From the NCBI GenBank assembly GCA_963840455.1, contig CAWIYV010000001.1:32001-96000 (forward strand): 64,000 nucleotides of DNA, read 5' to 3'. This DNA is from Nitrospirota bacterium. GTDB taxonomy: Bacteria; Nitrospirota; UBA9217. Position 1 is the first letter of the stretch. Every line of letters starts with the position of its first letter. A model generated the notes under the pieces. That model ran no database searches. It was not told the origin of the DNA and saw only the letters and a list, made by a program, of their open reading frames with translations. The translations under genes were made by a program, and so were the position numbers. Below, piece by piece: positions 12,916 through 36,352 of this stretch.

Positions 12916-13136
12916 CCTCGACCGCAGCTGCGAACCAGAAATACTAGCGGTCGGGAAGAGAGATGGCGAATGAAGGTATGTTGAGGATCAGCGTTTCGAT
13001 TGATACAGCGACCGTCCCTGAGTAGGCCACGTCGTCGCCTAGGCTCGGGCACTTGTGGAGTGCCGTTCACGCTACAAACGCGCTACGCGCTCCATCTCCC
13101 TCTCCCGATATTTCCGCAGGGTGATCTACAGAAAAT

Positions 13137-13168
13137 AAAAGCCGCTGACAATTTTATCGGCGGCTTTT
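13137..13168. terminator. Terminator-like hairpin downstream of the DUF11 cluster
   Basis: AAAAGCCGCTGA...TCGGCGGCTTTT inverted repeat with A/T tails. Confidence 0.75.
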
Positions 13169-13206
13169 GTCATTCTTTCCCGGTTTCCGAGGTCGCCTGC
13201 CCCACC

Positions 13207-16200
13207 CTACTGTCCGGTAATCCACTTCACCGCGTCGCGGACCGAAGCTTGGTCGAACTTCATCCGGAGCTTGACGAAAGGACCTTCAGCCGTGAAGTCC
13301 GCCTTCGAGAAGTCCCGGTCCATGAAGCCGATGAAATTGTATCCCACGCTGATCCAGAGGTTCATGGCCGCCTGGAGGCCCACCGACGCCTGCGTACTGT
13401 AGTCCGTCTGGCCGATGGCAAGCGATCGGAGCATGCTGACGCGCATCCCCACGTCCACCTTTTTCGTGATGTCGTACCGCCCCTCGATGCCGGTCAGATC
13501 CGTGTAGCCGCGGTAGTCGTTCTTTTCGATGGTCTCGCTCACGAACTTGGAGCCGTACTGGAAGGACCACTGCGTCCTGCCCTCGAGCTTGAAGTTCAGC
13601 ACGAAGTTATTCACCACCCGCCAGTTCTCGTAGGGCAGGTCCACGCCCTTCTGCTCCGCCTGAAGGAAGTCGAGCCGGTCGAGGAAGATGACGCGCGTCT
13701 CTAGAGGCCGGTAGGCCGCGCCGAGGCGGAGATCTCCTGAGAAGCTGACCGGTCCCGCAACGTTGACGGTCCGGAAGGTCTGGAGGCCCGCAGCAAGCGC
13801 GAGGCCGTTGCCCACCTCTCCGTTTGCGCCCCCGAAGACACCGAGTTTGTCTTCCGTCGTCGACCAGCGCTCCTCGACGCGGCCGGTCCACGACCACCGG
13901 TCAGCCCTGTACGCCGCGCCGAGGAAAACAGCTGTGAAGTCCTCGGTGCCACCCGACGCTGGCGGGACGTTCGTGTTCATCGAGTACTCGCCCGTCTTGT
14001 GGATCGTGGCTGACCGGTCGAAACCGGTATCAAGGCTCCACCGGCTGGTCAGCTGCCAGGCCTGCTTCAAACCGGTGGTGGCGAAGAGCCGGTTGCCGTT
14101 TTCCGTGGTCTGCTGCTCCATGGTCTGATTCAGCTGGGCGCCAGTCCAGGGGGCTGACCGGATGCCAACGCGGGACGTGGCCGTGTTCGCCTGAATGCCC
14201 CGCGTTACTTCCTGGTCCGCAAAGAGCGTTGTGTTCTTGGTGAGCAGGTAGTCCATTCCCACGGTCGTGCGCGTCGGGAAGTCCACGCTCGAGTCGGAAC
14301 TGTTCAGGGTCTGATCGTGCTGGATGCGGCCGGCCAACCGCTGGGAGAACTGGTATTTCGCGCCAAGGAAGATCTGCTCGGAACGGTGAACCTCACCCGT
14401 GCCGAGCGTGTCCTCGGCGTGCCGCAGCCCGGCGAAGACCTCATAGCCCGGCATGGCGTAGCGAGCCCGCGCCTCGGCCATGTCGCGCACCGCGCCAGTG
14501 GAGAGGTTCTCCTGACGGAAGACCTCGCCACCCAGGGACCAGGGTTGGTTGATGCGGTACAGCAGATCGCCGCCGACCTTGCGCGTTCCGGTTTCGCTGC
14601 CGTTCTGCTGGCCCACCCCGAAGCCGGGCTCCTGCTCGCGGACATACACCTTCCCTTCCGCCTGCTCGGAGCGGTGCTGGATCTCGGCAAGGTACGCCGA
14701 GCCTTCAATTGTAGTCCCGGCATTATCGCTCGAGGACCGAGCGGCCTCGGCGCGCAGCGTCGTGGACGGTGTCAGCCGGACCGAAGCGTCTACGCCGGTC
14801 AGGTTATTCTCGAGGCCCCGCGCCCCTTCATGGGCATGGGTCACGCCGACCTGGCTGCGCCGATCCAGCGAGTTCACGGCTACGCGGCCGCCATAGGTGT
14901 ACGACGTGTTCGAGGGATCGAAAGTCTCGTACTCGGTCACGATGTACACGGGGTTGAAGTTCTCGTCGCGGCTCTGCACGGGGGACTTGAAGAACAGCGT
15001 GCCGGACTCGTAATCGATGGTGTAATCCACATTCCGGCTAAGCCGCTGGGCCGACACGATCACCTCGCTCTTGAACCGGTCGCGGGCCTCGATCGTGACG
15101 GACTCCGAGTTCAGCACGATGTTCCTGCGTGACAGGTGGTAGAGGCCCGATGTACCGTCGCCGCGGAGCTCGTCCTTCACGTGCGCCTGATCGGTGTCCG
15201 CCGCGAAGACGGTGTACTCGAAGCGGTCGCCCTTCATCTCGGACTTCACGCCCGTTAGGTTCCTACTGTACCGGGATAGCTCGGTCATCGTCAAGCCCGT
15301 GGCGTAGTCGCCGAAGAGAGCATAGAACTGGCCTCGCTCCAGCTTGACATACACATGCTTGGCGCTCGGTGCGTCGTTCAGCTGCTCCGTGGCGTCGCCG
15401 TACAGCATATAGTACTTGTTCGGGTCAATGTACTGATACATGTTTCGCCGGCCGCCTGGTTCCTTCGCGCTGTCGTAGGCCGCGGTCAGGAGCCACTCGC
15501 CCTTGATCACGCCCTTGGTGTAGAAGGCCACGCGACCCTCGTGGTAGAGGTCGTCCGAGCCGCCCGTGGCGCCGAAGGACTCCATGTTCCCGGTCACGAT
15601 ATTGTATCCCACCGTGCCTTCGGCAAGGCCGACGAGCACCCAGTCGCGGGCCTCGGGCCGGAGCCACGCGCGAACCTCCTGGGACCCCGACGCGAGCGGA
15701 ATGCGCACCACCGCCTCGCCGGACTGCGTCGTCGGCGCCAGCTCGATCAGGGCGATACCATCGGCGCCCACCTGGTAGCGTATCCGGTCCGTGGCCGGGC
15801 CGGAGATCGGCGACTGCTGGAGCTGGGCCGCGCGCTGCTGCGCGAAATGCGGCGGATCCACCGTAAACTCACCGGCGATCCCCTCGCGCGCCGGATGACC
15901 GTCCTTGTCCAGCAGGCGCACCGCGATGGCCGGGGGGGTGATCCCATCAGCGAGCAGCCGCGACCGTTCGGGGACGAAGACCGCTGCCACGGGGTTTCCG
16001 GAATAATGGACAATCCGGAACATCTGATGGAGCACGGTGCCCGCCTCGTCCCTGACCACGACCTCGAAGCGGTTGTCGCCCTCAACGATGTTGATACCGC
16101 TCCATGTGCTCACCGCCAGACCGCCGTCGCCCCGCTTTAGAGTGCCTTCGAAATATATCGGGTCCACGGGCTTTCCGTCTTGCAGAAGCGTGAGGCGGTG

Positions 16201-19200
16201 CACGGGGTCGTGCTTGAACGCGGCCTTAGTGCTCGGTATAGATGGATGGTAGTTCTCCGGCGGCCAGAGCCAGCTGAAACCGGCGACCGCAGACCCGAGC
16301 CACGCCGCATTGTAGTCGGGCATGGCGTTTCCTGCGGAGCGGTCCGTAGCCTCCGCGTTCGCTTCCTGTGGCCACTCCTCGCCCGGCCGCAGACCCATCG
16401 TTGCCACGGCCTTCATGCCGCTGGGTGGACCGCTCACCAGCGCCGGCACGGCGACGATGATCTTGGGAGGCCTGATCCGGAGCTCCACCCGGCGGTTCCG
16501 TGCGCGGCCCTGCTCGGTACTGTTGCTCGCCACGGGCTCGTCCGGCCCCTTGCCGTCATAGGTGATCTGGTCGGACGTGAGGCCCAGACCGTCGGCAATG
16601 TACGCTCCGACCGTGGCAGCCCGCTCGTAGGACAGCGCGTAGTTGTCGGGGTAGCACGCCTGCAGCCGGGGGCTGATTCGCCGGGCGTCGGTGTGGCCGG
16701 TGACCGTGATATGCTCCACCGACTTCTGTTTCATCCGGGAGATGACGCGGTCCAGTTCCTCTTTGTCCCGCCGGGTAAGCTCGGCGCTCCCACTTTCGAA
16801 CTCGGGATGCAACACGATGTCCGGCGCCGGACGGAGCTCGTCTCGTGTGCCGCGGACGAGCTCCGTGCTCACCGCCGGCGTGCGGTTGTTCTTGCCCTCC
16901 GGCGAGTCAGCGGTAAGGATGGCGGAGGTTCTGAACTGAGCGCCTTCAGGGCCGCTGACGGGCACAACCGTATCGAAGGAAAGCGTTCCACCCCAGTTCG
17001 CCGGGATCTCGGCGAACCGGAAGGTGACCGTGCTGCCAATCTCTTGCGGCTCATCGATGGGGAACGCCTTCCAAAACGTGCCGGTCGGATTGCTGACTGG
17101 CCTGCACTCGGGTCGCGGCCCGGCTGCAAAGGCGGCCGTACCTGGCCGGTAAACACCCCCTTCGGGCAGCATGATGGAGAGCTTCAGGTTCCGCGCCGGC
17201 ACCACGCCGACGTGCACCGGGACCGTATATTGAATGAGGTCTTTCCCCTCCTCCAGAGGCGGCTCGCCAGGTGCCGGCCGCTTCGGAGACGTGAGGATCT
17301 CGATGCCGACCTCGCCGACCTGTTTCGGCTTGAGGCCCACGTGGAAGTCCGCGCGCCAGAGCGCCCCGCCTTGGAGGTCCACAAACTGAGAGAACGGTGT
17401 GCCGGCAAACCGCGTGTTCTCCTCGCAGGCCATGACCTCGTACTTCTCCGGCAACGTCGACAGGTCGACCTGCACCACATGCGTGCCCGGCTGCACGGCT
17501 GCGAAGTGGTACATGCCGTTCTGGTCGGTCACCACGAATGTCCCATCCTCGCGGTAAATCCGCACTCCCGCGAGACCGCCCTCCTCGCGCCGCTCCTTGT
17601 CACCACAGCCGTCCACGCTGACCCGTCCGACGATGGTCGCCGTGCTCCGGAACAGGTCCTCAATGACCACGACTGTGGCCTGCGCCGTGTTCGAAATCGC
17701 GCCGGGCGTGCCGGAGGCAACGGCTGTGTTGGTTGCTATGCCCGGCCGGGCCCCAGCGCCCACCTCGGCCACATAGACGATGTCGGCCTTGGTTCCAGCT
17801 GACAGGTCGCCAGCAGAGAAAGTCAGACTGCGGCCGTCAGAGGAAACAACGGGATCGGCGGTTGTCGCGCTGTTCAAGCGTGCCGAGCCTTTCCGGTAGC
17901 GGAAGCCAATCGGCAGCCGGTCCGTGACCATGACCGCCAGGATATTGCCGGTAGAATTATTTTCCACGGTGAGGCGATAGGGTACGAAGTCCCCCACCGC
18001 TGCGGTCTGTTTGCCTGCCGTCTTGACAAGCCACAGGCTTGCGTTCACGGGGTCCACGGGGATGTCTATGTGGATGGAAGGGCCGGGATTCACAACGAAG
18101 TCCTCGCCACGCGACCCGGGTATTACGATGGCGAAGGGCCCGCCTGGCAGCGTCTGGATGATGTTGGTCGCCACCTGGGACGGCGCGCCGTAGCCAGTGG
18201 GAGGCGTCACAACAAGCCGATAGGTGCCGGGCGCGACGATGAAAGGAAACCGGTAGCCGCCGGGCGTGAAGGTGTAGATTCTGCCGCTGCCGTCCGTAGC
18301 CGTGGCGCCCGAGACAACTGCCGATGGGAAAATGCTGACGCCGTCCTCGCCGTACACCGTGGCCGGAAGGCCGGTCGAAGCATCGATCATCGTAACCGTG
18401 GCCCCGTCCACCGGGAGACCGGACACACTGCTGAAGACTAGTCCGTAGGGATCGACCAGCGCCCCTGCTACCGGTGTGTCCACCGCATCGGCACTGTCGG
18501 TGTACGACGCATTGATACGCGATCCGGTCGCCACCTGCAGGACGCCATTCCCACTCGCGGCCGGCGTAGGCCCGGTCTGGATGTACCCGGCGAAAACGCC
18601 CGTGTTCGGGCCGGATTCAAGGAGCCGCAGCACCTCCGTGTCAAGGGTCACGGGGTTCTGGATGGTAACAAGCACGGTCTCACGGACTGCGGGATCCAGG
18701 TTCTGGTCCAGATCAGTCAGCCGGATGAATACTGGTTCTCCCATGTTGAACTGCGTTGCAGGCACGAGCGGGACCGGAGCTGAGAGATCGATAGGCGCCG
18801 AGCCGACGCCTGGAGTTATATGCACCGGCGGGGCAAGCGCGATGAACGTGCCCGTCGGAGTGCCGTTATTGCTGTAGGACGTCGTCCCGACGGACACGAG
18901 CTGGGCGCCCGGCGCACCAGGGCCGTACTGCAGGAGTTCCAGGGTCGAAGGGGTGCGGAGCGCGATCGTGGTCACGGTGACGCTGTTTGAGCTGACCAGT
19001 AGAGGGACTGAGGATGCTCCGGTGGTATAGACCGCTGCTGCGGTGTTTATGATGTTCGTTCCGGGCAGCGTCGCGGAAATACTCGCTACGGGTACGAGCA
19101 TGATGGATAAGAATGCAAGAAGAACGATGATTAAGGAGAATAATGACGACGTTCTGACCGATGAGTCTCTGTTCTGACGGCTGGCGGCAGCCATGTCGGG

Positions 19201-19281
19201 GCGCACAAGTGGCATCATGCCGGTATTGCTGCCGGATGCCCGTTTCACGCGTATCGTTTGTATGCGCTTATCCCTTTCCAA
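13207..19281 (-). CDS. Giant exported protein: donor-like N-strand, Ig/carboxypeptidase-regulatory-like domains, complete DUF11 domain, SdrD-B-like domain, OmpA-C domain, predicted C-terminal beta-barrel (start uncertain)
   Basis: Hydrophobic signal ending ASISA; LVKT..VGDFVPYRLTVEN..VTDRLP..ATNTAVA (DUF11); VTGHTD..LSYERA..GRARNRRVEL (OmpA); ~800 aa of amphipathic strands ending FVKLRMKF. Confidence 0.85.
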   Translation of the reverse strand: MERDKRIQTIRVKRASGSNTGMMPLVRPDMAAASRQNRDSSVRTSSLFSLIIVLLAFLSIMLVPVASISATLPGTNIINTAAAVYTTGASSVPLLVSSNSVTVTTIALRTPSTLELLQYGPGAPGAQLVSVGTTSYSNNGTPTGTFIALAPPVHITPGVGSAPIDLSAPVPLVPATQFNMGEPVFIRLTDLDQNLDPAVRETVLVTIQNPVTLDTEVLRLLESGPNTGVFAGYIQTGPTPAASGNGVLQVATGSRINASYTDSADAVDTPVAGALVDPYGLVFSSVSGLPVDGATVTMIDASTGLPATVYGEDGVSIFPSAVVSGATATDGSGRIYTFTPGGYRFPFIVAPGTYRLVVTPPTGYGAPSQVATNIIQTLPGGPFAIVIPGSRGEDFVVNPGPSIHIDIPVDPVNASLWLVKTAGKQTAAVGDFVPYRLTVENNSTGNILAVMVTDRLPIGFRYRKGSARLNSATTADPVVSSDGRSLTFSAGDLSAGTKADIVYVAEVGAGARPGIATNTAVASGTPGAISNTAQATVVVIEDLFRSTATIVGRVSVDGCGDKERREEGGLAGVRIYREDGTFVVTDQNGMYHFAAVQPGTHVVQVDLSTLPEKYEVMACEENTRFAGTPFSQFVDLQGGALWRADFHVGLKPKQVGEVGIEILTSPKRPAPGEPPLEEGKDLIQYTVPVHVGVVPARNLKLSIMLPEGGVYRPGTAAFAAGPRPECRPVSNPTGTFWKAFPIDEPQEIGSTVTFRFAEIPANWGGTLSFDTVVPVSGPEGAQFRTSAILTADSPEGKNNRTPAVSTELVRGTRDELRPAPDIVLHPEFESGSAELTRRDKEELDRVISRMKQKSVEHITVTGHTDARRISPRLQACYPDNYALSYERAATVGAYIADGLGLTSDQITYDGKGPDEPVASNSTEQGRARNRRVELRIRPPKIIVAVPALVSGPPSGMKAVATMGLRPGEEWPQEANAEATDRSAGNAMPDYNAAWLGSAVAGFSWLWPPENYHPSIPSTKAAFKHDPVHRLTLLQDGKPVDPIYFEGTLKRGDGGLAVSTWSGINIVEGDNRFEVVVRDEAGTVLHQMFRIVHYSGNPVAAVFVPERSRLLADGITPPAIAVRLLDKDGHPAREGIAGEFTVDPPHFAQQRAAQLQQSPISGPATDRIRYQVGADGIALIELAPTTQSGEAVVRIPLASGSQEVRAWLRPEARDWVLVGLAEGTVGYNIVTGNMESFGATGGSDDLYHEGRVAFYTKGVIKGEWLLTAAYDSAKEPGGRRNMYQYIDPNKYYMLYGDATEQLNDAPSAKHVYVKLERGQFYALFGDYATGLTMTELSRYSRNLTGVKSEMKGDRFEYTVFAADTDQAHVKDELRGDGTSGLYHLSRRNIVLNSESVTIEARDRFKSEVIVSAQRLSRNVDYTIDYESGTLFFKSPVQSRDENFNPVYIVTEYETFDPSNTSYTYGGRVAVNSLDRRSQVGVTHAHEGARGLENNLTGVDASVRLTPSTTLRAEAARSSSDNAGTTIEGSAYLAEIQHRSEQAEGKVYVREQEPGFGVGQQNGSETGTRKVGGDLLYRINQPWSLGGEVFRQENLSTGAVRDMAEARARYAMPGYEVFAGLRHAEDTLGTGEVHRSEQIFLGAKYQFSQRLAGRIQHDQTLNSSDSSVDFPTRTTVGMDYLLTKNTTLFADQEVTRGIQANTATSRVGIRSAPWTGAQLNQTMEQQTTENGNRLFATTGLKQAWQLTSRWSLDTGFDRSATIHKTGEYSMNTNVPPASGGTEDFTAVFLGAAYRADRWSWTGRVEERWSTTEDKLGVFGGANGEVGNGLALAAGLQTFRTVNVAGPVSFSGDLRLGAAYRPLETRVIFLDRLDFLQAEQKGVDLPYENWRVVNNFVLNFKLEGRTQWSFQYGSKFVSETIEKNDYRGYTDLTGIEGRYDITKKVDVGMRVSMLRSLAIGQTDYSTQASVGLQAAMNLWISVGYNFIGFMDRDFSKADFTAEGPFVKLRMKFDQASVRDAVKWITGQ

Positions 19282-19306
19282 TGGTTACCGTTCTACTCCT
19301 GAAAAT

Positions 19307-19336
19307 CTCCCCTCCCACACTCAGGTGGGAGGGGAG
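19307..19336 (-). terminator. Strong intercistronic hairpin between the pilin and anchor genes
   Basis: CTCCCCTCCCAC-6nt-GTGGGAGGGGAG perfect 12-bp stem, followed by ATTTT on the minus strand. Confidence 0.7.
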
Positions 19337-19357
19337 TGGTCGCTGCAGCTTTTTAAT

Positions 19358-20461
19358 TTAGTTCACCGTAACCTGGTACTTGATCCGCGCAACACCGCCA
19401 AGGGAGTTAACAGTTAAGTTCGTGACATTGACCGTGCCTGCGGTAAAATCGGCATTGTCGACATCGCCATTCGTATTCGTGCGGCATCCGAACGTGCCGG
19501 TGCCCGGATCAACGGCGATGCCCTGGCCCGCTATGCAGCTAGGCCCTCCGTCATCGAACTGCGTCCGGAATGTCACCGGCAGCGCACCCAGTGCGTCCGC
19601 GATAGACACGTTCGTAGCATTGGACGTGCCGGGATTCGTGATCGTCACTATGTAGGTGATGACCGCGCCAGGGATCGACCGCGGCGAGGTGGTCCCGTTT
19701 ACGGGATCGGAATAGACCACCGGGGTCTTGGTCACAGTGATCCCCGATATCCGGAACGCACTCCGGTCGGATGCGCGAGCATCGCGTCCTACGTCGCCGG
19801 TGACTGTCCCGTTGCCGGCATCACCGAAGACCGTATCAACACCGTTGTAGTTGGCGACACCCTCGGCCAGGTTCGTCGCTACCCCTGCGCCGCTGCCAAA
19901 GGCGCGGGCTACCGCGGTAAGCGAAAATGCCTGGAGCGCGCCATTCGCCTCACCCGCCGGGATGTTGGCGACGATAAATACTGTCACCGAGACGTCCGAG
20001 TTGATGGTACTGAACAGCGCCGTGTCAACCCCCGGGTCATAGATACCGTTACCAGTATCCACATAGGCGGCGACCGTCGGGACGGTGACAAAGGTGTTCG
20101 CCCCGCCGTTATAGGGGTTGGTGGCCGAAACGGCCGTCACCAGCCCGAAATCGAGCTGTGTGTTCGTGATGTTCGTCACCAGGAACGTCAGGTAGGCATT
20201 CGTTGCGCCTCCCGCCACGTCGACGAAGTTCGCGTTCTGGCGGGTGACCGTCATGTTCACCCGCATACCGACCGTGAATGTGGCCGTGGAGACAAGCGCG
20301 CTTCCCGGCACTCCTCCGATGGAATAACCGACCGACACCGAGTTGCTGATGCCGGTGCCTGCAATGGTGCCCGCTGCCCAGATGGACGCAGGTACCGCAA
20401 TGGCGATCGCCGTAATGATCGCGACCGCCGTCAGGATCCTTTTAATGCTTGTTGCTTGCAT
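19358..20461 (-). CDS. Exported DUF11-family protein, candidate major pilin
   Basis: AAGGAGG RBS; signal peptide ending SIWA; N-terminal AGTIAGTGISNSVSVGY; C-terminal VTKT..SIPGAVITYIVTITN..IADAL..YQVTVN-stop. Confidence 0.8.
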   Translation of the reverse strand: MQATSIKRILTAVAIITAIAIAVPASIWAAGTIAGTGISNSVSVGYSIGGVPGSALVSTATFTVGMRVNMTVTRQNANFVDVAGGATNAYLTFLVTNITNTQLDFGLVTAVSATNPYNGGANTFVTVPTVAAYVDTGNGIYDPGVDTALFSTINSDVSVTVFIVANIPAGEANGALQAFSLTAVARAFGSGAGVATNLAEGVANYNGVDTVFGDAGNGTVTGDVGRDARASDRSAFRISGITVTKTPVVYSDPVNGTTSPRSIPGAVITYIVTITNPGTSNATNVSIADALGALPVTFRTQFDDGGPSCIAGQGIAVDPGTGTFGCRTNTNGDVDNADFTAGTVNVTNLTVNSLGGVARIKYQVTVN

Positions 20462-20661
20462 GACTTCCTCCTTAGGTTAGTGTTTTCGAATATGCAAAAT
20501 AGATTGTTCTGTGGCCGTTCTTGCCCCAGGTCTTTTTATCCCCCCTTCCATGATTCTCCGAACTTGTTCCAGAGAAATCTTCGTTCTTTTCGTTTTCGAG
20601 AATCGTTCCTATATTGTGATATCATGGCATGCTCCTCCCAAGTGCTCCGTCCTTCTCGCGG

Positions 20662-21156
20662 CTACCGGATCTGCGCACGAAACGAGACGCTTCCGCTAGC
20701 GCCAGGTGCCAGGGGGGCCGTCACGGTCCAGCGGATGTGCGTAAAATCCGCGGGCAGGGCCGGACGGACTTTGCCGTCCTTGTTCGTGATCTGCAGTTTT
20801 TCCGGTGCAGCGTATTTCTTGCCACCGTCGACGGAAAAGTCGATCTTCGTTCCCTTGCCCTCTGCGCTCTTTTCCACATAGGCCATGTGCTCGGGCACGG
20901 GGTTCGTGACCACCACCCCAGTGGCCGCCTGCTTTCCTTTGTTGACATAGCGTGTGGTGAAGATCACGACATCGCCTGGAACGACCTTGGCTTTAGAGGC
21001 CTCGATGCGCTTCACCTCGGTCGTTCCCTGGGCTGTCTTTTCCTTGACCTCCACTTCGGCTAGGCTCGTCACGACAATGTCCCCTTGCTGTTGCGCCCAG
21101 GCGGACAGGGGGGCCAGTGCCAATACCAGCATGCATCCAATGATCCTGTTCCTCAT
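20662..21156 (-). CDS. Small exported single DUF11-like domain protein, candidate chaperone
   Basis: Signal ending SAWA; VVPGDVVIFTTRYVN..VVTNPVP..FSVDGG..HIRWT..LAPGASGSVSFRAQIR-stop. Confidence 0.8.
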   Translation of the reverse strand: MRNRIIGCMLVLALAPLSAWAQQQGDIVVTSLAEVEVKEKTAQGTTEVKRIEASKAKVVPGDVVIFTTRYVNKGKQAATGVVVTNPVPEHMAYVEKSAEGKGTKIDFSVDGGKKYAAPEKLQITNKDGKVRPALPADFTHIRWTVTAPLAPGASGSVSFRAQIR

Positions 21157-21179
21157 CTGCGTTCCCTCCTTAGTATTGA

Positions 21180-22217
21180 TTAATCAATTTTTACATCGAA
21201 CGAAATGACCTGCGCAGGCGACGCGCTGGTCAGGTTTCCCACATTGACCGTAATGGTATTCGGAGAAGTGATCCCGAAATTGCCCGCGTCGGCGTCTGTG
21301 GCGTCGGTCAGCGGCACTCCGTTCAGTACTATCGTTCCGGGCTTGTAGGTGGTGCTCGCCGGGATCGCGTCGGAGATGACGATGCCAATTGCAGTTCCGG
21401 TTCCCGCCATGGTCACACTCAGGGTATAGCGGATGGTCGCTCCCGGTTGAGGCCGGTTCCCGCCGTAGGGATCGAGAATGACGGCCGTCTTGGTCACATT
21501 CACCGTGGCACCACTGGAGATGGCATAGCTTCCGGCGGCGGTCCGGGTACCCTGCGACGCGCCGATCACCGCGTCGGAACCTCCTTCGCCGGCACCGGGC
21601 AGGATGGTCCCGGCAGGACCGGTCCCGCTGGCTGAGACCGCAGTCAGGTTGACCGTACCGACGTCGCCATTGGTCATGGTGGTCGCCGGTATACTTGAAA
21701 GTACAAAGATCGTCAGAAAACCGTCAGCTGTGACCGTGCCGGTGCCCGAGCTGTACAGCACGTCCGTGCTTTGGTCAAAGACGCCGTTCCCATTAGCGTC
21801 GAAATAGATCGCCGTGACCACCGGATCGAACTGGTCCCCGCCAATGCCCGCCCCAGTCGCGGACAGAGTATATGCGTCATTGCCGTTCCCAGTGTTGGTG
21901 ATACGGAGCGTAGAGACCGCATTGGCCTGGCCCGGTAGAACGGGTACCGGAGAAGCGTCCTGCAGGGTGAGGGTAAGTTCGAGACGCTCGGCAATCCGGA
22001 GGGATGCGTTGCTGGACTGCGAGTAGTTGTTGCCGGCTATCGTGTAGTTCACGCTTACGGTGTTCATGATCACCGTGCCCGCTGCTGTTCCGACAGCACG
22101 CGCGCTGTCCTGACCCACCAGGCTTGCGGCAAGGAACGCGATGGCAATCAGGGCCTTTTTATATGTAGTTCCGCTTCTCTTCATGGGTCGATCTTTCGTG
22201 CGAGGCGGGCAGAGCAC
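21180..22217 (-). CDS. Exported DUF11-family protein, second or minor pilin (alternative start ATG 22184)
   Basis: Signal ending SARA; N-terminal VGTAAGTVIMNTVSVNY; DANGNGVFD motif; C-terminal VTKT..PGATIRYTLSV..ISDAIP..ISFDVKID-stop. Confidence 0.8.
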   Translation of the reverse strand: MLCPPRTKDRPMKRSGTTYKKALIAIAFLAASLVGQDSARAVGTAAGTVIMNTVSVNYTIAGNNYSQSSNASLRIAERLELTLTLQDASPVPVLPGQANAVSTLRITNTGNGNDAYTLSATGAGIGGDQFDPVVTAIYFDANGNGVFDQSTDVLYSSGTGTVTADGFLTIFVLSSIPATTMTNGDVGTVNLTAVSASGTGPAGTILPGAGEGGSDAVIGASQGTRTAAGSYAISSGATVNVTKTAVILDPYGGNRPQPGATIRYTLSVTMAGTGTAIGIVISDAIPASTTYKPGTIVLNGVPLTDATDADAGNFGITSPNTITVNVGNLTSASPAQVISFDVKID

Positions 22218-22232
22218 GCCTCACTTAGCCTC

Positions 22233-25200
22233 CTAATTGATCCTGACCCGGAACTGGATCGTGAACTGCGGGTTCGGCGGGCCGCTCGTTCCGTTCAACG
22301 CTCCGGCAGGGTTGATGCGTACGCCCTTCACATTCGAGTCATACCCGCCAACCGACACCGGCGTATAGTTGTACGGAGGACCGCCGCCAATCTGAGACGA
22401 GTAGGTCACAGCGGTCGCATAGTTGTACGTCACTCCGCAAGGAGGGACGGCGCTGCAAGTAAAGGTCACGGGATCGCCCGATCCGGTATCGACGTACATG
22501 CTTGTATTGGCCGGAATCGGGTCCGTGATGACGATCGAATTGCTATCAGCGGAGCCCGGGCCGCTATTGATCACCGTTACGGTATACAGCATCACCGCCC
22601 CGGGAATGGATTTTGGGTTGGTCGTATTATTGTATGGGTCGGAGAAGGTCGAGACCGCCTTAACGACCAATATGCTCGGTACAGCGCGTTCACCGATCGC
22701 GAATACGCCAAACCCACTCATACCGGTCGCCGTCGTATTATTGGGATTTTTCGCACCCACGGTCGGGTAGGTCCACACGCCGCCGCTCTTGCGTCCGACA
22801 ATAAAGTTGGCCGTGTTCGCACCGCTATCAATATCGCCATTCACAAATGTGAATGTCGCGTCATACGTTGCGAAGGCTAATGAAGCCCCTTGCGTCAGGG
22901 TCCATGTGCGGTTCACGCTCTTTCCCGCATCAATGCCTGAGGTGTTCGCCGTGGTGTCCCCATGGTCGCCCGTATCGGTGCGAGCGATCAGTACGCCGTT
23001 CACCAGCGTCGAGGTGACGTTGGCCATGGCGACCGTCACCGGGGTGTAATTCGTTGCATCGCCGATAGGGAATGTACAGAGCGTAGTGCCTGCATTGGTC
23101 GGATAATGCAGGCTCAGATTGCCCACCACAAATCCGCCGGTTCGTACGATTCCGGTAGCACAGCTGGACCCCACTTCTAGAACATTCGCGCCGGTCGTGA
23201 AAATCCCGTTGGTGAGAGTTAGCACACCGCTGACGGTGGGACTGGCGCTAAGCGTCGCTCCAAACGCATCGTTCATTATTAAGTTAGCGTAGGTGCCGGT
23301 ACCTGAAAGAACGTGAACGGCCGTGCCGCCGCTCAACGTAATGCTTCCGGTGGTGGCGGTATGCGTTCCGGTGTTGTTCACGTTGCCATTCACGGTCTGG
23401 ATGCTCGCACCACTTCCAAAGATCACACTGGTAATCGCAAGATCTCCCCTCACAACGAAGCTGCCCGCCGCGGTCTTGACGCCGCTACCGCTCACGGTGA
23501 GATTTCCATAGCCCGGAGCCGCTTCAGAAGCAATATTCTGGTTGGCGCCGCTGTATTCGACCGTGCTGGTTGCGCCGAGCGTGTGCGTTGTGTAGTTGGT
23601 TGGAAAGCTGTTGGTCCCACCGATCTTGAGCGTTGTTCCGTTGGCCACCGTGATCATGCCACCGGCAGCCGTTCGGTTCGCGGTGAAGGTAGCGAGATCC
23701 AGCGTTCCCGTGGAAACGGAAAGGTTCCCGACTTGGGTCGCATTGCCCGTCAGGGCGGCTGCATTGCCAGCACCCACATTTATCGCAAGGTTGTTAAAGT
23801 TGGAGGCACCTATCTGCGGTGCTGCGCCTGTGAAAATCACTGTTCCGGTAGGCGTGAAGGTGCCGGCCGATCTCGTCCAGGTGCCCGCGCCTGTGCCGGT
23901 CACCGTAATCGTGTTACCGTTGTCAATCAGCGTGCCGGCCGTCTGGTTGAAGGTGCCGATGGAAATTGGTGTAGCGGCGGTTAAGGTCGTTGCTCCGGTG
24001 GAAGTGTAATTGAGAGCACCGGCAACGGTGAAGCCGGCGTTTCCCGTCATCGTCGCAGCGCCTGAAATGGTAAGGTCGCCGTTGATCGTGGTCACACCTG
24101 TCATGGTCTTAGCGCCGCTGTTGCTCAGGGTAAGGTCATAATAGCTCGTCGGCTCTACTGTCTGCGCGCCGGCACGGTTATAGTTCACCGTGTTGCCGAT
24201 GGCAGACGCGTCGAGAGTGTTAATGCCCGGCGGTCCGATGAACCCGATGCTCAGCGTGCCGGTATTGGCCAGCGTGCCGGTACCAGCCAAGGCGGTCGTG
24301 ACGTTTAGATTTCCGTTATTGGTCAAAGTCACCCCGGTAACGGTAACGTTGGGGATGGTGGTAATAGTTGTTCCACCAAAGCTCTGGCTATTGGTGTTAA
24401 AGGCGTAGACCCCAGTGCCCGCAGTGAAGGTTCCGTTGTTGATCAGGCCGCCCTGCATCGTAATGTTCTCATTAGCGCTATTGTTCCAGGTGCCGCCGTT
24501 ATTGATCGTGATGTTTCCCGTGTAGGTTTTTGTCCCTGCTGCATTGTTGTGAGTCAACGTGCCTGACACTGACGTCGTACCCGTCACTACAGTGTTTAAA
24601 CCGCCCACGGTCAAGGTCGTGCCCGCGCCGACGGAGAGATTGCCGAGGATGTTCAGCGTGCCGGCAGCGGGAGTTTTTGTACCGCTCCCCGACAGAACAA
24701 GATTCGGGTACGTCATCCCGGCCGTTGTGATTGCCTGATTTCCGGCTAAAGCGAGTGTTATCGTTGCTGTTGAGTTTCCTAACGCGTTGAAGGTGTTGGT
24801 TCCTGAATTAGCGGCAAATGGAGTGGCATTGTAAAATTGCAGGTTGGGCGAGCCCGACAATTCCACTTTACAGGTCCCATTACATGCCCCCCCCGGTCCG
24901 CCATTGAGATCAATTCTGTCCAATAACCAGGTTCCCGAACCGGAGAAGGTAGAAGTGACGTTGTTTCCCGCAAGGTAGATGGCATTTGTGCTGCCAGAAA
25001 CAGTGAAGTTGACGCTGCCATTGTTGACGAGGTTGCCCCCCAAGTATATGTCGGAGTTGGCTCCAGCGGCGATAGCAAGAGTTCCTCCTGAATCGATCTG
25101 CAGGCTCGCCAACGTGTTAGTGTTGGCATTGAACGTTACCGTGCTGCCGTTCGGTACGATGACTGAGTCGCCTGCTGCCGGCACATGCCCGCAACTCCAG

Positions 25201-25613
25201 GTAGCCGCCGTTCCCCAATTGACGGCACCGGTGTTGCTGGTGCAGGTCGCCGCCTGCGCAACAGATCCCCACGCACCCAGCCAGATCAGCATTACTGTCA
25301 CGATGCAAATTTTGAAAAATTTTCTTATTGCCCGTCTTGGCACGCTAGCCTGTCCGCTGTGGTCAACCGAACCATCCATTTTGTTCCATGAAAGTGGCAC
25401 TGTTCGCGACGCGGCAGACTTCTCTCTTCTTCTGCATTCCGGTATGAGTCGGGATAGTTCTTTGTCTTGCACGTTCACTTGGTCTTTATATTCCCTCATC
25501 GCGCCAACAACGTAGCGCATTGTGTACTGCCTCATCGATGACAGCATCCGTTCTCTCTTGTCATCTGAATTGACCATAATAAACACCCTCACAAATACAA
25601 AAAAACATGGCAT
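22233..25613 (-). CDS. Large Thr/Gly/Asn-rich fibrillar adhesin with C-terminal DUF11-like domain (true start probably internal, e.g. ATG 25379)
   Basis: Signal ending VAQA; WGTAATWSCGHVPAAGD N-domain; repeats such as YxNLxxSGSGxKT; C-terminal VVKA..SIPGAVMLYTVTVIN..ITDPIP..IQFRVRIN-stop. Confidence 0.8.
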   Translation of the reverse strand: MPCFFVFVRVFIMVNSDDKRERMLSSMRQYTMRYVVGAMREYKDQVNVQDKELSRLIPECRRREKSAASRTVPLSWNKMDGSVDHSGQASVPRRAIRKFFKICIVTVMLIWLGAWGSVAQAATCTSNTGAVNWGTAATWSCGHVPAAGDSVIVPNGSTVTFNANTNTLASLQIDSGGTLAIAAGANSDIYLGGNLVNNGSVNFTVSGSTNAIYLAGNNVTSTFSGSGTWLLDRIDLNGGPGGACNGTCKVELSGSPNLQFYNATPFAANSGTNTFNALGNSTATITLALAGNQAITTAGMTYPNLVLSGSGTKTPAAGTLNILGNLSVGAGTTLTVGGLNTVVTGTTSVSGTLTHNNAAGTKTYTGNITINNGGTWNNSANENITMQGGLINNGTFTAGTGVYAFNTNSQSFGGTTITTIPNVTVTGVTLTNNGNLNVTTALAGTGTLANTGTLSIGFIGPPGINTLDASAIGNTVNYNRAGAQTVEPTSYYDLTLSNSGAKTMTGVTTINGDLTISGAATMTGNAGFTVAGALNYTSTGATTLTAATPISIGTFNQTAGTLIDNGNTITVTGTGAGTWTRSAGTFTPTGTVIFTGAAPQIGASNFNNLAINVGAGNAAALTGNATQVGNLSVSTGTLDLATFTANRTAAGGMITVANGTTLKIGGTNSFPTNYTTHTLGATSTVEYSGANQNIASEAAPGYGNLTVSGSGVKTAAGSFVVRGDLAITSVIFGSGASIQTVNGNVNNTGTHTATTGSITLSGGTAVHVLSGTGTYANLIMNDAFGATLSASPTVSGVLTLTNGIFTTGANVLEVGSSCATGIVRTGGFVVGNLSLHYPTNAGTTLCTFPIGDATNYTPVTVAMANVTSTLVNGVLIARTDTGDHGDTTANTSGIDAGKSVNRTWTLTQGASLAFATYDATFTFVNGDIDSGANTANFIVGRKSGGVWTYPTVGAKNPNNTTATGMSGFGVFAIGERAVPSILVVKAVSTFSDPYNNTTNPKSIPGAVMLYTVTVINSGPGSADSNSIVITDPIPANTSMYVDTGSGDPVTFTCSAVPPCGVTYNYATAVTYSSQIGGGPPYNYTPVSVGGYDSNVKGVRINPAGALNGTSGPPNPQFTIQFRVRIN

Positions 25614-25701
25614 TTAGTAACATAAGCTTCAAACATAATAAAATAATTAACTTCTTTTTTTTGAAGTCCAACAAATATTTTTAATACCTATGATACTGTA
25701 A

Positions 25702-25730
25702 ATTATAATAAATCAAATATTATTTGTCAA
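25702..25730 (-). promoter_or_regulatory. Perfect consensus sigma70 promoter upstream of the DUF11 cluster
   Basis: TTGACA (25730-25725)-N17-TATAAT (25707-25702) with a very AT-rich upstream tract. Confidence 0.85.
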
Positions 25731-25844: not shown

Positions 25845-26117
25845 TCAAGCAACCCCAATGATTTCGGTCATCGTGAGGTTCACCTTGTTGTCAACTACGA
25901 ACGTTGCAGAGGGATCGGTGCTGATTGCCGGCTGCAACGCGTCGCCGATCGCCCAACCGGGAGAGGTGGCATTGGTCATGGGCTGGTATTGATCGCGGAT
26001 GTGACGACGCTGATGAAACACCATCCCAGCACCAGCAAGGACCAATGCGCGAAGACCCGGCAGAGAGGCAACAATACTCGCGCCGACATAGCGGCGAGCA
26101 CTAATGCATGATGCCAT
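25845..26117 (-). pseudogene. Decayed 5' fragment of another DUF11-type pilin gene
   Basis: ..MTNATSPGWAIGDALQPAISTDPSATFVVDNKVNLTMTE resembles ISNSVSVGYSIGG..STATFTVGMRVNMTVT of 19358-20461; stops after 90 codons. Confidence 0.65.
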
Positions 26118-34927: not shown

Positions 34928-36352
34928 TGTCAAGCCAAAGTAGAAATGTCCTATTCTTACCAAAATAGAAATGTCCGGTTTTTACGGTGCCGATAGAGGC
35001 TGCTCTCGACGTCGTCTAGGTGTGAGGGCGGGCCTCGTTTTCCAGGGATGATCGGTCGGAGGTATCCAAGGCTTCTTTGCTGGGAACAGGGGGAGTGGCC
35101 CCGGCGTTTCCCTTGGCGGCTGTTCCGTAATCATCCGATAGCGCAGGTCCTGGCCGTTGTAAGTGATATGCAAACTGCCGTCAAGACGCGCCTCCACGGT
35201 GACCTTCTTGGCCCGGGTCATCTGCTCGATCTGGTAAAGCTTGCCGTTGTACGCGATCGTAAAGTCGTTCTTGACCGTCCGCTCCTCCTTGATGCAGAAG
35301 ATGCGGTCGAGTTCTCTTGCATGCGGGGCCGGCCGGTGCAGGTCGGCCTTGAGACGAGCCTGTTTCCGGAACCGACTGTTATGCTTCGGCAGATAGGCGT
35401 CCAGGAAGGTATTCGCCTCGTCGACGTTCTTGATCCCCCGAAGGCGCATCTCCCGGACTAAGCGGTCCTGCAGCGTCTTGAACAGTCGTTCCACCCTGCC
35501 CTTGGCCTGGGGAGAGTTGGCGTGGATGACCTCGACCTCCAAGGCCGCCAAGCTCTTCTCAAAATGGCTCATGGGCTCCCGGCCGGACAACTGTTCGTCG
35601 ATGGTCGGCTTAGCCCATGACTTGTACGTGGTGTGCTTGTCCAGATAGACGCTCTGGGGGATACCGTACAGCCTGATATACCGCTTCATGCTGTCCATGG
35701 CAGGCATCGTGCCCTCGTAATCATAGAATCGGCCATAAACGGTTCCCGTTGCGTCGTCGATGTACCCCATGAACACGCAGAACGGGCCCCGGCCCTCGAA
35801 CCAGTCATGATGGGAGCCGTCTATCTGTACCAACTCGCCGAAACAGGCCTTCCGTTCGCGCCGCTGCCGGTGCTTCTTCACTCGGCGCTTTTTATAGGGG
35901 ACCTCCGCCTCGTTCAGCCAGAGCCGGAGTGTTTCATCGCTTATGGCGATCCCATGGACCTCATAAAGTTTCTCCGTGGCATGGGCAAGATTGAAGTCGG
36001 CATACTCTCGCTTAAAAAGCTTGAGTGCCCGCTCCTTGATCTTCTTCAGAATCCGGTTGTTCGACGCCCGGCCGCGAGACCGGTGGCATATGCCGTCGTC
36101 GCCCTCGGTCCGAACCCGCTTGATTAGCCGCCGGAGCTGCCGGTCGCTCAGCCCGAGAACCGCTGCTGCCGCGACCTGGCTGACCTTCCGGTCCAATGCC
36201 TGATGGATAACGTGAAGACGTTTCGATTCCCTTCTGCTCATCGTGATCATGTCCTTATCTGCCACTGTGCCCTCCCGATTGGTAGGGCATTGTAGCCGGA
36301 ATTAGGACATTTCTACTTTGGCAGAATAGGACATTATCATTTTGGCATTACA
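34928..36352 (-). mobile_element. Intact IS1202-like (ISNCY group) insertion sequence, 1425 bp, with 17-bp target-site duplication
   Basis: TGT..ACA ends; imperfect inverted repeats with duplicated CCAAARTAGAAATGTCC-like subrepeats; flanks CAGTGAAAAGGGACGGG at 34911-34927 and 36353-36369. Confidence 0.93.
34982..36265 (-). CDS. DDE transposase (rve-type core, N-terminal HTH)
   Basis: GELVQIDGSHHDWFEGR, IDDATG, YLDKH, SPQAKGRVERLFKTLQDRL. Confidence 0.95.
   Translation of the reverse strand: MADKDMITMSRRESKRLHVIHQALDRKVSQVAAAAVLGLSDRQLRRLIKRVRTEGDDGICHRSRGRASNNRILKKIKERALKLFKREYADFNLAHATEKLYEVHGIAISDETLRLWLNEAEVPYKKRRVKKHRQRRERKACFGELVQIDGSHHDWFEGRGPFCVFMGYIDDATGTVYGRFYDYEGTMPAMDSMKRYIRLYGIPQSVYLDKHTTYKSWAKPTIDEQLSGREPMSHFEKSLAALEVEVIHANSPQAKGRVERLFKTLQDRLVREMRLRGIKNVDEANTFLDAYLPKHNSRFRKQARLKADLHRPAPHARELDRIFCIKEERTVKNDFTIAYNGKLYQIEQMTRAKKVTVEARLDGSLHITYNGQDLRYRMITEQPPRETPGPLPLFPAKKPWIPPTDHPWKTRPALTPRRRREQPLSAP

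Follow-up and report, generated by a model that had tools for sequence, protein, structure and literature searches.

Arrays of DUF11 domains normally form single-chain fibrillar adhesins (PMC12617251; 10.1101/2025.08.19.671072), and the CLIPPER domains of the adhesins described are whole domains with an intrachain bond (PMC12617251). Donor-strand complementation between separate subunits is combined with an isopeptide bond in BsaA of Clostridium perfringens, where the intersubunit bond is sortase-independent (10.1101/2024.11.04.621531), and in the threads of Sulfolobus, where an Asn is linked to the N-terminal amine of subunit n+2 (PMC9715654). In SpyTag/SpyCatcher, an isopeptide immunoglobulin (Ig)-like domain is split into a strand and the remainder, which bond spontaneously (PMC6539128). 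Here, we report a five-gene operon (genes A to E) on the minus strand of a 64,000-nt stretch of a Nitrospirota genome (contig CAWIYV010000001.1), hereafter the window, in which the DUF11 domains of the subunits are split domains, not complete ones. Such a split gives a specific donor-strand mechanism, probably locked by a Lys-Asn isopeptide bond, and it is with a probability of roughly 0.6 that the gene products form a donor-strand-linked fibre or stalk based on protein E. The covalent lock, a pore role for the barrel of E and the role of protein C are less certain than the fibre or stalk itself. Coordinates are window positions unless another contig or locus is named, and are collected in Table 1.

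Proteins B, C, D and E share the CLIPPER family with the single-chain fibrillar adhesins, and the Lys, Asp and Asn residues align to those of the solved CLIPPER domain 9IFR. In contrast to the described adhesins, which keep the domain whole, the operon distributes it over two polypeptides. The operon is similar to BsaA and the Sulfolobus threads in that strand donation is combined with a (proposed) sortase-independent lock; however, the folds of BsaA (TasA-like) and of the thread subunit (no Pfam family) are unrelated to those encoded here, and the bond chemistry of the threads is different. The organisms that make those fibres are monoderm or archaeal and have no outer-membrane component, whereas the operon has E. 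Similarly, Tag/Catcher pairs are laboratory constructs from Gram-positive adhesins, whereas the split in the operon is apparently natural and is repeated to chain subunits.

The original prediction, made from the letters of the window alone, described five co-oriented genes behind one promoter, each encoding a signal peptide and DUF11-type motifs, with no PapD chaperone, PapC usher, sortase, type IV pilus ATPase or curli gene among them. This was confirmed. Five adjacent open reading frames (ORFs) are arranged in the order A-B-C-D-E with intergenic gaps of 15–200 nt, a promoter-like site precedes A, and the N-terminal hydrophobic stretch of each protein ends in an Ala-x-Ala-like site, as judged by eye from the translations. 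None of the named families was matched by Pfam or NCBIfam models in the five proteins or in 15 flanking ORFs. B (35.1 bits), C (38.3 bits), D (27.6 bits) and E (44.8 bits) lie above the 24-bit cut-off of the NCBIfam model TIGR01451, and the Pfam model PF01345 (cut-off 24.6 bits) was exceeded only by C (35.1 bits) and E (44.5 bits). In A, where the signal peptide ends near residue 121, Pfam recognised only a G8 domain (residues 138–256, 33.8 bits); the middle part is a long Gly/Thr/Asn-rich beta-helix-like region, and the C-terminal DUF11-like domain was found only by a purpose-built hidden Markov model (HMM) of D orthologues (E 1.2e-18). The 1100 residues first given for this adhesin are obtained if translation starts at Met27, compared with 1126 from the first ATG and 1048 from Met79; the true start is probably Met27 or Met79.

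The evidence for a split domain comes from both ends of the proteins. Here, acceptor denotes a C-terminal CLIPPER domain that ends after strand F, and donor denotes the two N-terminal strands of mature B, D or E. A, B, C and D end one residue past strand F of the DUF11/CLIPPER domain, and the last two strands are absent. In nearly all of the loci compared, the HMM of the D acceptor fits A, B, C and D at their extreme C-termini, and all 32 A-like adhesins examined end one residue past the same strand. When an HMM of the complete domain of E (131 positions) was used, the match to C ended at position 94 and the scored match to B at position 84, and the last two strands are therefore missing from both. 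At the other end, mature B and D start directly after the signal peptide with a strand of the G-T-x-I-x-N-x-A type followed by a second strand. E starts likewise: Asn79 in its donor is invariant in 32/32 orthologues, and 128 of 154 full-length E proteins carry an I-x-N-x-A-type motif, most of the others being N-terminally truncated gene calls or carrying a G-D-x-I-x-N variant. Comparison of the N-termini of E and D with hhalign gave a probability of 96.4% for an alignment that includes the signal peptides.

The resulting layouts are as follows. B has a signal peptide, a donor (residues 41–66), a middle Ig-like domain and a C-terminal acceptor (residues 235–345). D is organised in the same order, with donor strands at residues 28–67 (Asn40), a middle Ig-like domain at about residues 64–240 and an acceptor at residues 239–367 (Lys245 and Asp289), and C has a signal peptide and an acceptor-like DUF11 domain at residues 53–163. 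No donor-like segment was found in A, even at a domain E of 5. The set is consequently polar: A is acceptor only, both parts are found in B and D, and E is a donor without a terminal acceptor.

Natural fusions reveal how the two parts belong together. In a 621-aa fusion of two subunit units (L013:17251-19116), an acceptor ends at residue 322 and a donor motif begins at residue 323, and an A-like protein in L039 has the same acceptor-donor junction inside a complete domain. Thus, the donor motif is what normally follows strand F. The L013 fusion gene is part of a second gene set on its contig and adjoins another E-like gene. The N-termini of E and C align with the last strands of the complete-domain HMM in the right register, with weak scores (0.4 and −1.4 bits, respectively); the identity of the donor with the missing strands is carried instead by the L013 fusion and the L039 junction. 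No fused forms of D were scored among the longer proteins of 8000 candidates, which is weak evidence. A distance-matrix (mirror-tree) comparison of donor with acceptor segments gave partial correlations that were all ≤0.25, the highest values being those between two segments of one protein and those of the C acceptor with the donors of B and D.

Self-complementation is not open to A, an acceptor without a donor, or to E, a donor that lacks a terminal acceptor. For D, which has both, the fold of two copies of the mature protein was predicted from a purpose-made 41-row alignment. The interaction prediction score from aligned errors (ipSAE) was 0.77, 0.74 and 0.72 (median 0.74), compared with 0.00 for the best of three controls; the mark used for this score is reached by 20 of 30 solved pairs and by 1 of 23 single chains. 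The runs had ≥98% of contacts in common, with a partner predicted local distance difference test (pLDDT) value of ≥86. In the predicted interface, which is asymmetric and open-ended, residues 30–67 of copy 2 lie against residues 239–296, 351 and 366–367 of copy 1, and Lys245 contacts residues 42 and 58 while Asp289 contacts residues 42–43. The prediction supports head-to-tail binding of D without showing it.

A quite different reading is that no fibre exists, B and D being circularly permuted monomers that complete themselves and the five gene products being separate proteins of the surface or periplasm that merely share a domain type. The AlphaFold2 monomer model of D is in its favour, since it is confident throughout, with donor strands at pLDDT >90, including residues 31–63, and a self-complemented or otherwise docked D monomer is compatible with that model. 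Monomer models of true donor-strand pilins also self-complement, however (PMC9715654), and the D monomer model is therefore uninformative rather than supportive of an arrangement in cis. In that model, the donor continues directly into strand one of the middle domain, and a 3-residue linker connects the last strand of this domain to the acceptor, such that donor and acceptor are at opposite ends of the middle domain. On superposition, the middle domain and the acceptor match extended tandem Ig arrays, e.g. the antigen I/II C-terminal domains and PrgB; the structural neighbours of D are only generic Ig-array and single-Ig-domain matches (Z 7–8.7). Neither the unpaired ends of A and E, nor the L013 fusion in which a donor follows the preceding acceptor, nor the trans arrangement taken by the two-copy D fold agrees with five unconnected monomers, and we regard this reading as very improbable. 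An arrangement in trans is favoured by the combination of A/E polarity, D domain geometry, the L013 fusion and the D-D fold.

The residues required for an isopeptide bond follow the same division. In the complete internal domain of E, Lys, Asp and Asn are all invariant in 43 sequences. A profile of this domain finds 9IFR with an E-value of 1.2e-4, whereas a single-sequence search with the E DUF11 domain against solved structures gave no match. The Lys and Asn that align are separated by 91 residues, which is also the spacing of the bonded Lys715 and Asn806 of 9IFR (PMC12617251). The terminal domains of A, B and D carry Lys and Asp only, and the Asn is in the N-terminal donor of the same chain or another, its motif Asn being the counterpart of the triad Asn in the complete domain. 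Lys and Asp are both kept in 19/21 A, 41/44 B and 40/41 D acceptors (Lys245 and Asp289 of D are invariant in 41 sequences), and the donor Asn is present in 37/38 D and 31/37 B proteins. With Lys and Asp in the acceptor and Asn in the donor, complementation would therefore permit a sortase-free Lys-Asn bond, like a natural Tag/Catcher pair, and on the basis of these residues subunits would probably be locked together in this way.

The gene set is not peculiar to the window. At least 1599 relatives of the C-terminal part of E were found among 7999 candidates scored, and E relatives occur in at least 552 species genomes in a scan of one genome per species. The E C-terminus is carried by 61 of 401 genomes in a sample of the phylum of the window and by 39 of 63 in the family to which the window belongs. 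Counted from record titles, the 80 loci kept comprise 39 from the former Deltaproteobacteria (Geobacteraceae, Desulfuromonadales, Desulfobacterales and others), 14 from Gammaproteobacteria, 8 from Nitrospirota and 5 from Betaproteobacteria, together with 2 from Lentisphaerota, 1 from Krumholzibacteriota, 1 from unclassified Proteobacteria, 9 from unclassified bacteria and 1 on a contig binned as an archaeon. Cultured strains account for four of the 80, and cultivable carriers of the operon include Geomonas azotofigens, Geomobilimonas luticola, Desulfatibacillum alkenivorans and Desulfosarcina alkanivorans. Homologues of B, C and D are directly 5′ of E, in the order B-C-D-E or C-x-x-E, and A is either 5′ or 3′. 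An upstream flank of E of ≥5 kb was available in 48 loci; 32 of these contain two or more mid-size ORFs plus one small ORF that end in an acceptor, and 47 have at least one acceptor-ending ORF, the sole exception being L023. Apart from the subunits, no other conserved neighbour of E was noticed across the loci. In a tree of the barrel region, the E of the window is sister to a Nitrospirota record (Shimodaira-Hasegawa-like approximate likelihood ratio test value 96). The E homologue on the contig binned as a Halobacteria archaeon (L028) is nested within gammaproteobacterial sequences in the same tree, and this contig is probably mis-binned and not archaeal. The only names given to E-like proteins are "OmpA family protein" and "TIGR01451 repeat protein", and in the wider family the labels "DUF11 domain-containing protein" and "hypothetical" are also used.

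A second, divergent system of the same design is present elsewhere in the same genome (L083). Its genes encode a beta-helix adhesin, three split-DUF11 subunits of 205 aa with a single domain each, and an OmpA/barrel protein of 1985 aa. The L083 subunits carry an N-T-A-type N-terminal motif and a linker rich in Gly, their C-termini lie at the same strand as in the operon, one of them scores above the TIGR01451 cut-off (25.3 bits), and the giant protein begins with an I-x-N-x-A-type motif. Two of the subunit genes are near-identical and in tandem. The locus adjoins cyclic di-GMP signalling genes, and its flanks encode a histidine kinase and two response regulators, one of the HD-GYP and one of the GGDEF type.

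The copy number of D bears on a further alternative, namely a composite adhesin of fixed length that contains one copy each of A, B, D and E and no D homopolymer. One copy of each protein satisfies the donor-acceptor polarity, E already has a stalk of several Ig-like domains, and single-chain adhesins are what DUF11 arrays normally form. The near-identical tandem subunits of L083 and the two D-like genes of L022 fit a many-copy subunit instead, and the head-to-tail D-D interface is predicted to be asymmetric and open-ended. On balance, a fixed-length adhesin appears unlikely.

Protein E is proposed as the base. The original prediction of an OmpA/beta-barrel protein as the fifth product was borne out by a Pfam match to an OmpA-like domain and by a modelled C-terminal barrel. 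From the N-terminus, E is composed of a signal peptide, the donor, an Ig-like stalk that includes one complete DUF11 domain, the OmpA-like domain, two Ig-like domains and a giant barrel. The Ig-like string of the stalk contains SdrD_B-like, CarboxypepD_reg-like and two DUF11 domains. Against the TraB equivalog NF033763, for which the cut-off is 700 bits, E scored 44.7 bits in a match confined to the OmpA-like domain, and E does not qualify as a TraA/TraB protein. The C-terminal ~800 residues match no Pfam family. An AlphaFold2 model of residues 940–2024 (mean pLDDT 75.0, predicted template modelling score 0.64) folds as an outer-membrane beta-barrel and contains two confident Ig-like domains, four strands, a beta-rich insert (~1341–1431) and 32 long strands, from which a barrel of about 32–36 strands is predicted. 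In Foldseek searches with the barrel, SlpA, SprA, LptD and MtrB, the largest barrels known, ranked top, with template modelling scores near 0.2 and none specific. A Foldseek-independent search with the whole 1085-residue E model returned generic barrels only; the PapC pore (2vqi_A) was second, with a Z of 12.8, a root-mean-square deviation of 9.1 Å and 277 aligned residues, level with porins at Z 12–13.5. Invariant residues of the E family gather at the start of the barrel and in the highly conserved insert.

These data also bear on whether E is only an anchor, with the subunits exported otherwise (e.g. by a type II system elsewhere in the genome) and the barrel serving for anchoring or transport. 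The fact that no solved translocon is a specific neighbour, with the PapC pore scoring level with porins, is in line with such a role, as is the moderate confidence of the barrel model. By contrast, ~32–36 strands are far beyond what an anchor needs and resemble the largest known conduits, the most conserved part of E is a barrel-start module that recurs in other giant proteins, and the synteny of E with the subunits is strict from phylum to phylum, none of the other neighbours having been noticed to be conserved. We consider it distinctly unlikely that E is an anchor alone. The most conserved module (residues ~1186–1519; alignment positions 247–580) by itself fits other open frames, ~900 to 4,600 residues long, in many of the genomes sampled from the phylum, which hints at a wider superfamily of giant outer-membrane proteins. 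Clusters of stand-alone ~850-residue proteins similar to the barrel part of E are present in the ESM Atlas (feature scores 0.94–0.97), where they are unnamed or given the generic name "outer membrane protein"; as a lead only, they indicate that the barrel may be a separate gene in some organisms.

Protein C differs from the other subunits. Its acceptor-like domain has Asn at the position of the catalytic Asp, and this substitution is found in 39 of 48 small C proteins in a recount that left out seven long proteins classified as C. C is the most conserved of the small proteins, far more so than B and D, and its conservation fits a protein that is not exposed at the surface. The loss of the usual catalytic Asp is compatible with a transient, non-covalent role, and C is thus a candidate for a non-covalent assembly factor or cap.

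Several observations weigh against a fibre or stalk built in this way, or against particular parts of it. The D-D score is the model's own confidence, obtained with the purpose-made alignment, and 1 of 23 single chains also reaches the mark. D as a long homopolymer and D once per chain are both compatible with the data. In the mirror-tree comparison, the E donor and the D acceptor had a partial r of −0.11, which lends no support to a pairing of these two segments. In six of 37 B proteins (L007, L018, L022, L027, L038 and L078), the donor Asn is replaced by Ser or Thr, and in the same six loci the A and B acceptors keep Lys and the acidic residue (Asp; Glu in L018). The D donor of L018 is also without Asn, and the A acceptor of this locus has Glu at the Asp position. 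Across the loci, loss of the B donor Asn was not seen to covary with a missing Lys or Asp in the acceptor of A or B. Given that these six B donors have lost Asn while the acceptors keep Lys and an acidic residue, the lock is not universal or the pairing order differs, and the joints in these loci may be non-covalent or differently paired. With regard to E, the strand count is the secondary-structure list of one model of moderate confidence, and the order stalk-OmpA-barrel puts the stalk in the periplasm first and does not imply threading through the barrel. Finally, a search of sequencing runs returned 14 DNA runs with small word shares and no RNA run.

The operon was compared with the pilus systems of diderm bacteria. 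Like the chaperone-usher pili (type 1, P and Saf), it encodes a candidate tip adhesin with a groove and no extension, together with an outer-membrane barrel and a small, putatively periplasmic accessory protein in the same operon. With the same polarity and an operon-encoded barrel, it may by analogy work like these pili. The principle of an incomplete Ig fold completed by the N-terminal strands of a neighbour likewise applies as an analogy and not as homology, the truncation and the donor being present and docking in trans being predicted. Structural searches with D list SafDAA-dsc and CfaB, which are donor-strand-complemented pilin fusions, among many Ig arrays. Unlike chaperone-usher systems, the operon gave no match to the families of the PapD-like chaperone (PF00345/PF02753) and the usher (PF00577), its subunits are of the CLIPPER/DUF11 type and donate two strands rather than one, and the joint carries an isopeptide triad. 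The usher barrel has 24 strands and a plug, whereas that of E has a predicted ~32–36 strands and is part of a protein that also contains a donor, a stalk and an OmpA-like domain. C resembles a subunit domain and not a PapD fold. The type V pili of Bacteroidota (Fim and Mfa) are also diderm strand-exchange fibres without PapD or PapC and have a dedicated base anchor subunit. Their subunits are lipoprotein precursors that are trimmed by a protease and donate C-terminal strands, whereas the operon proteins have apparently ordinary, cleavable signal peptides, N-terminal donors and a giant-barrel anchor; no lipobox Cys was seen in the operon proteins, and Ala-x-Ala-type sites directly precede the donor (by eye, translations of B–E).

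No sortase family was matched in the 20 ORFs scanned, and the C-termini of A–D end in the strand-F motif with no LPXTG-type signal. Type IV pilin/ATPase and CsgA/CsgG families had no match in the five proteins and 15 flanking ORFs, which was the part of the genome searched. Because the defining components of the known fibre families were looked for by sequence family and not found, the operon is probably not a member of these families. A literature search outside subscription journals and supplements found no description of the gene set or of a split-DUF11 pilus, and the first 300,000 of the 525,587 characters of a 2026 Chemical Reviews survey contain neither DUF11 nor CLIPPER.

In the proposed mechanism, subunits would join head to tail, the incoming donor completing the acceptor of the previous subunit. 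A is placed at the distal tip because it is acceptor only, B and D would form the shaft, and the N-terminal donor of E would close the chain and tie the fibre to the cell. Because the OmpA-like domain separates the stalk from the barrel, E must at first have its stalk and donor in the periplasm, and for this reason the simplest scheme is one of tip-first growth on the periplasmic side. Growth would then proceed as in chaperone-usher pili and would end when the donor of E caps the last subunit. The barrel would be a wide outer-membrane conduit with a gate or handover module, the OmpA-like domain would fix the base to peptidoglycan, and C would hold donors or cap subunits non-covalently before assembly.

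The original prediction of a self-contained pilus pathway therefore appears broadly right, with one change. The gene set co-occurs in other genomes across phyla, as seen in a homologue and synteny scan, which removes the first of the grounds on which that prediction could have fallen; the tip/shaft/base polarity is upheld, and pair prediction, run for D only, has two copies joining head to tail (median ipSAE as above). What changed is the nature of the building blocks, which contain split and not complete DUF11 domains. It is possible, at clearly less than even odds and therefore put forward tentatively, that the system is a further diderm pilus class, distributed over hundreds of species that range from Nitrospirota to Gamma- and Betaproteobacteria. 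Such a class would combine natural Tag/Catcher halves, tip-first periplasmic polymerisation, a sortase-free covalent lock and exit through a ~36-strand barrel, which would be among the largest single-chain barrels; the N-terminus of E would be both terminator and covalent anchor, with an OmpA-like tie to the wall, and a subunit-derived C would replace the chaperone.

The promoter-like site fits the consensus at 12/12 hexamer positions and the leader around it is AT-rich; 12 promoter-like sites were observed in the region compared with 4.5 expected from shuffles. As read from the sequence, the hairpin beyond the E stop has a palindromic stem with T-runs on either side in both strands, and it is a possible terminator of the operon. 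The spacer between C and D (20462–20661) is 200 nt long, the other operon spacers being 15–76 nt, and a scan detected no minus-strand terminator in it; it could contain a regulatory element that sets subunit ratios. A short frame 5′ of the promoter (25884–25949, minus strand) fits the second half of the donor-region profile with 10.3 bits in a three-sequence search and may be a leftover of another subunit gene. Among the 15 flanking ORFs scanned are, to one side of the operon, SurE, PCMT and Rnf subunits and, to the other, CpsB/CapC and a heptosyltransferase. Further from the operon, an ORF with matches to helix-turn-helix and integrase-core domains is located at 34982–36265.

Table 1. Positions of the genes, domains and putative signals of the operon and of the second locus in the same genome
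Feature	Position	Strand	Description
Promoter-like site 5′ of gene A	25702..25730	-	sigma-70-type, TTGACA-17-TATAAT
Gene A	22233..25613	-	1126-aa ORF; candidate tip adhesin
Acceptor domain of A (residues 981-1126)	22236..22673	-	Lys and Asp present; D-acceptor HMM
Gene B	21180..22217	-	345 aa; putative shaft or adaptor subunit
Gene C	20662..21156	-	164 aa; signal peptide and single acceptor-like DUF11 domain
Gene D	19358..20461	-	367 aa; candidate for the main subunit of the shaft
Donor segment of D (residues 28-67)	20261..20380	-	donor HMM, E 1.1e-13
Acceptor domain of D (residues 239-367)	19361..19747	-	acceptor HMM, E 1.6e-35
Gene E	13207..19281	-	2024-aa ORF; proposed base protein
Donor segment of E (about residues 66-105)	18967..19086	-	Asn79 invariant
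Complete internal DUF11/CLIPPER domain of E (residues 415-544)	17650..18039	-	Lys420, Asp454, Asn518
OmpA-like domain of E (residues 828-936)	16474..16800	-	peptidoglycan-binding type; PF00691, 59.1 bits
Barrel region of E (about residues 1252-2007)	13261..15528	-	AlphaFold2 secondary structure
GC-rich hairpin directly 3′ of the E stop	13135..13170	listed for +	14-bp stem
L083 (contig 9, 258000-277900)	174-4157, 5849-6466, 6579-7196, 7337-7960, 7963-13920		second divergent system, same design

If the proposal is true, a function would be assigned to a large protein family that now has generic labels in at least 552 species genomes. It would represent a new diderm pilus route, with no components common to the chaperone-usher, type IV, type V and curli systems, and the first covalently chained, cell-wall-tethered fibre in diderms. 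The split-domain isopeptide trick of protein engineering would then exist in nature, with many orthogonal donor-acceptor pairs. Given that many of the carriers are anaerobes of sediment, groundwater and wetland (Geobacteraceae, Desulfobacterales and Nitrospirota), such fibres could matter in attachment to minerals and partner cells.

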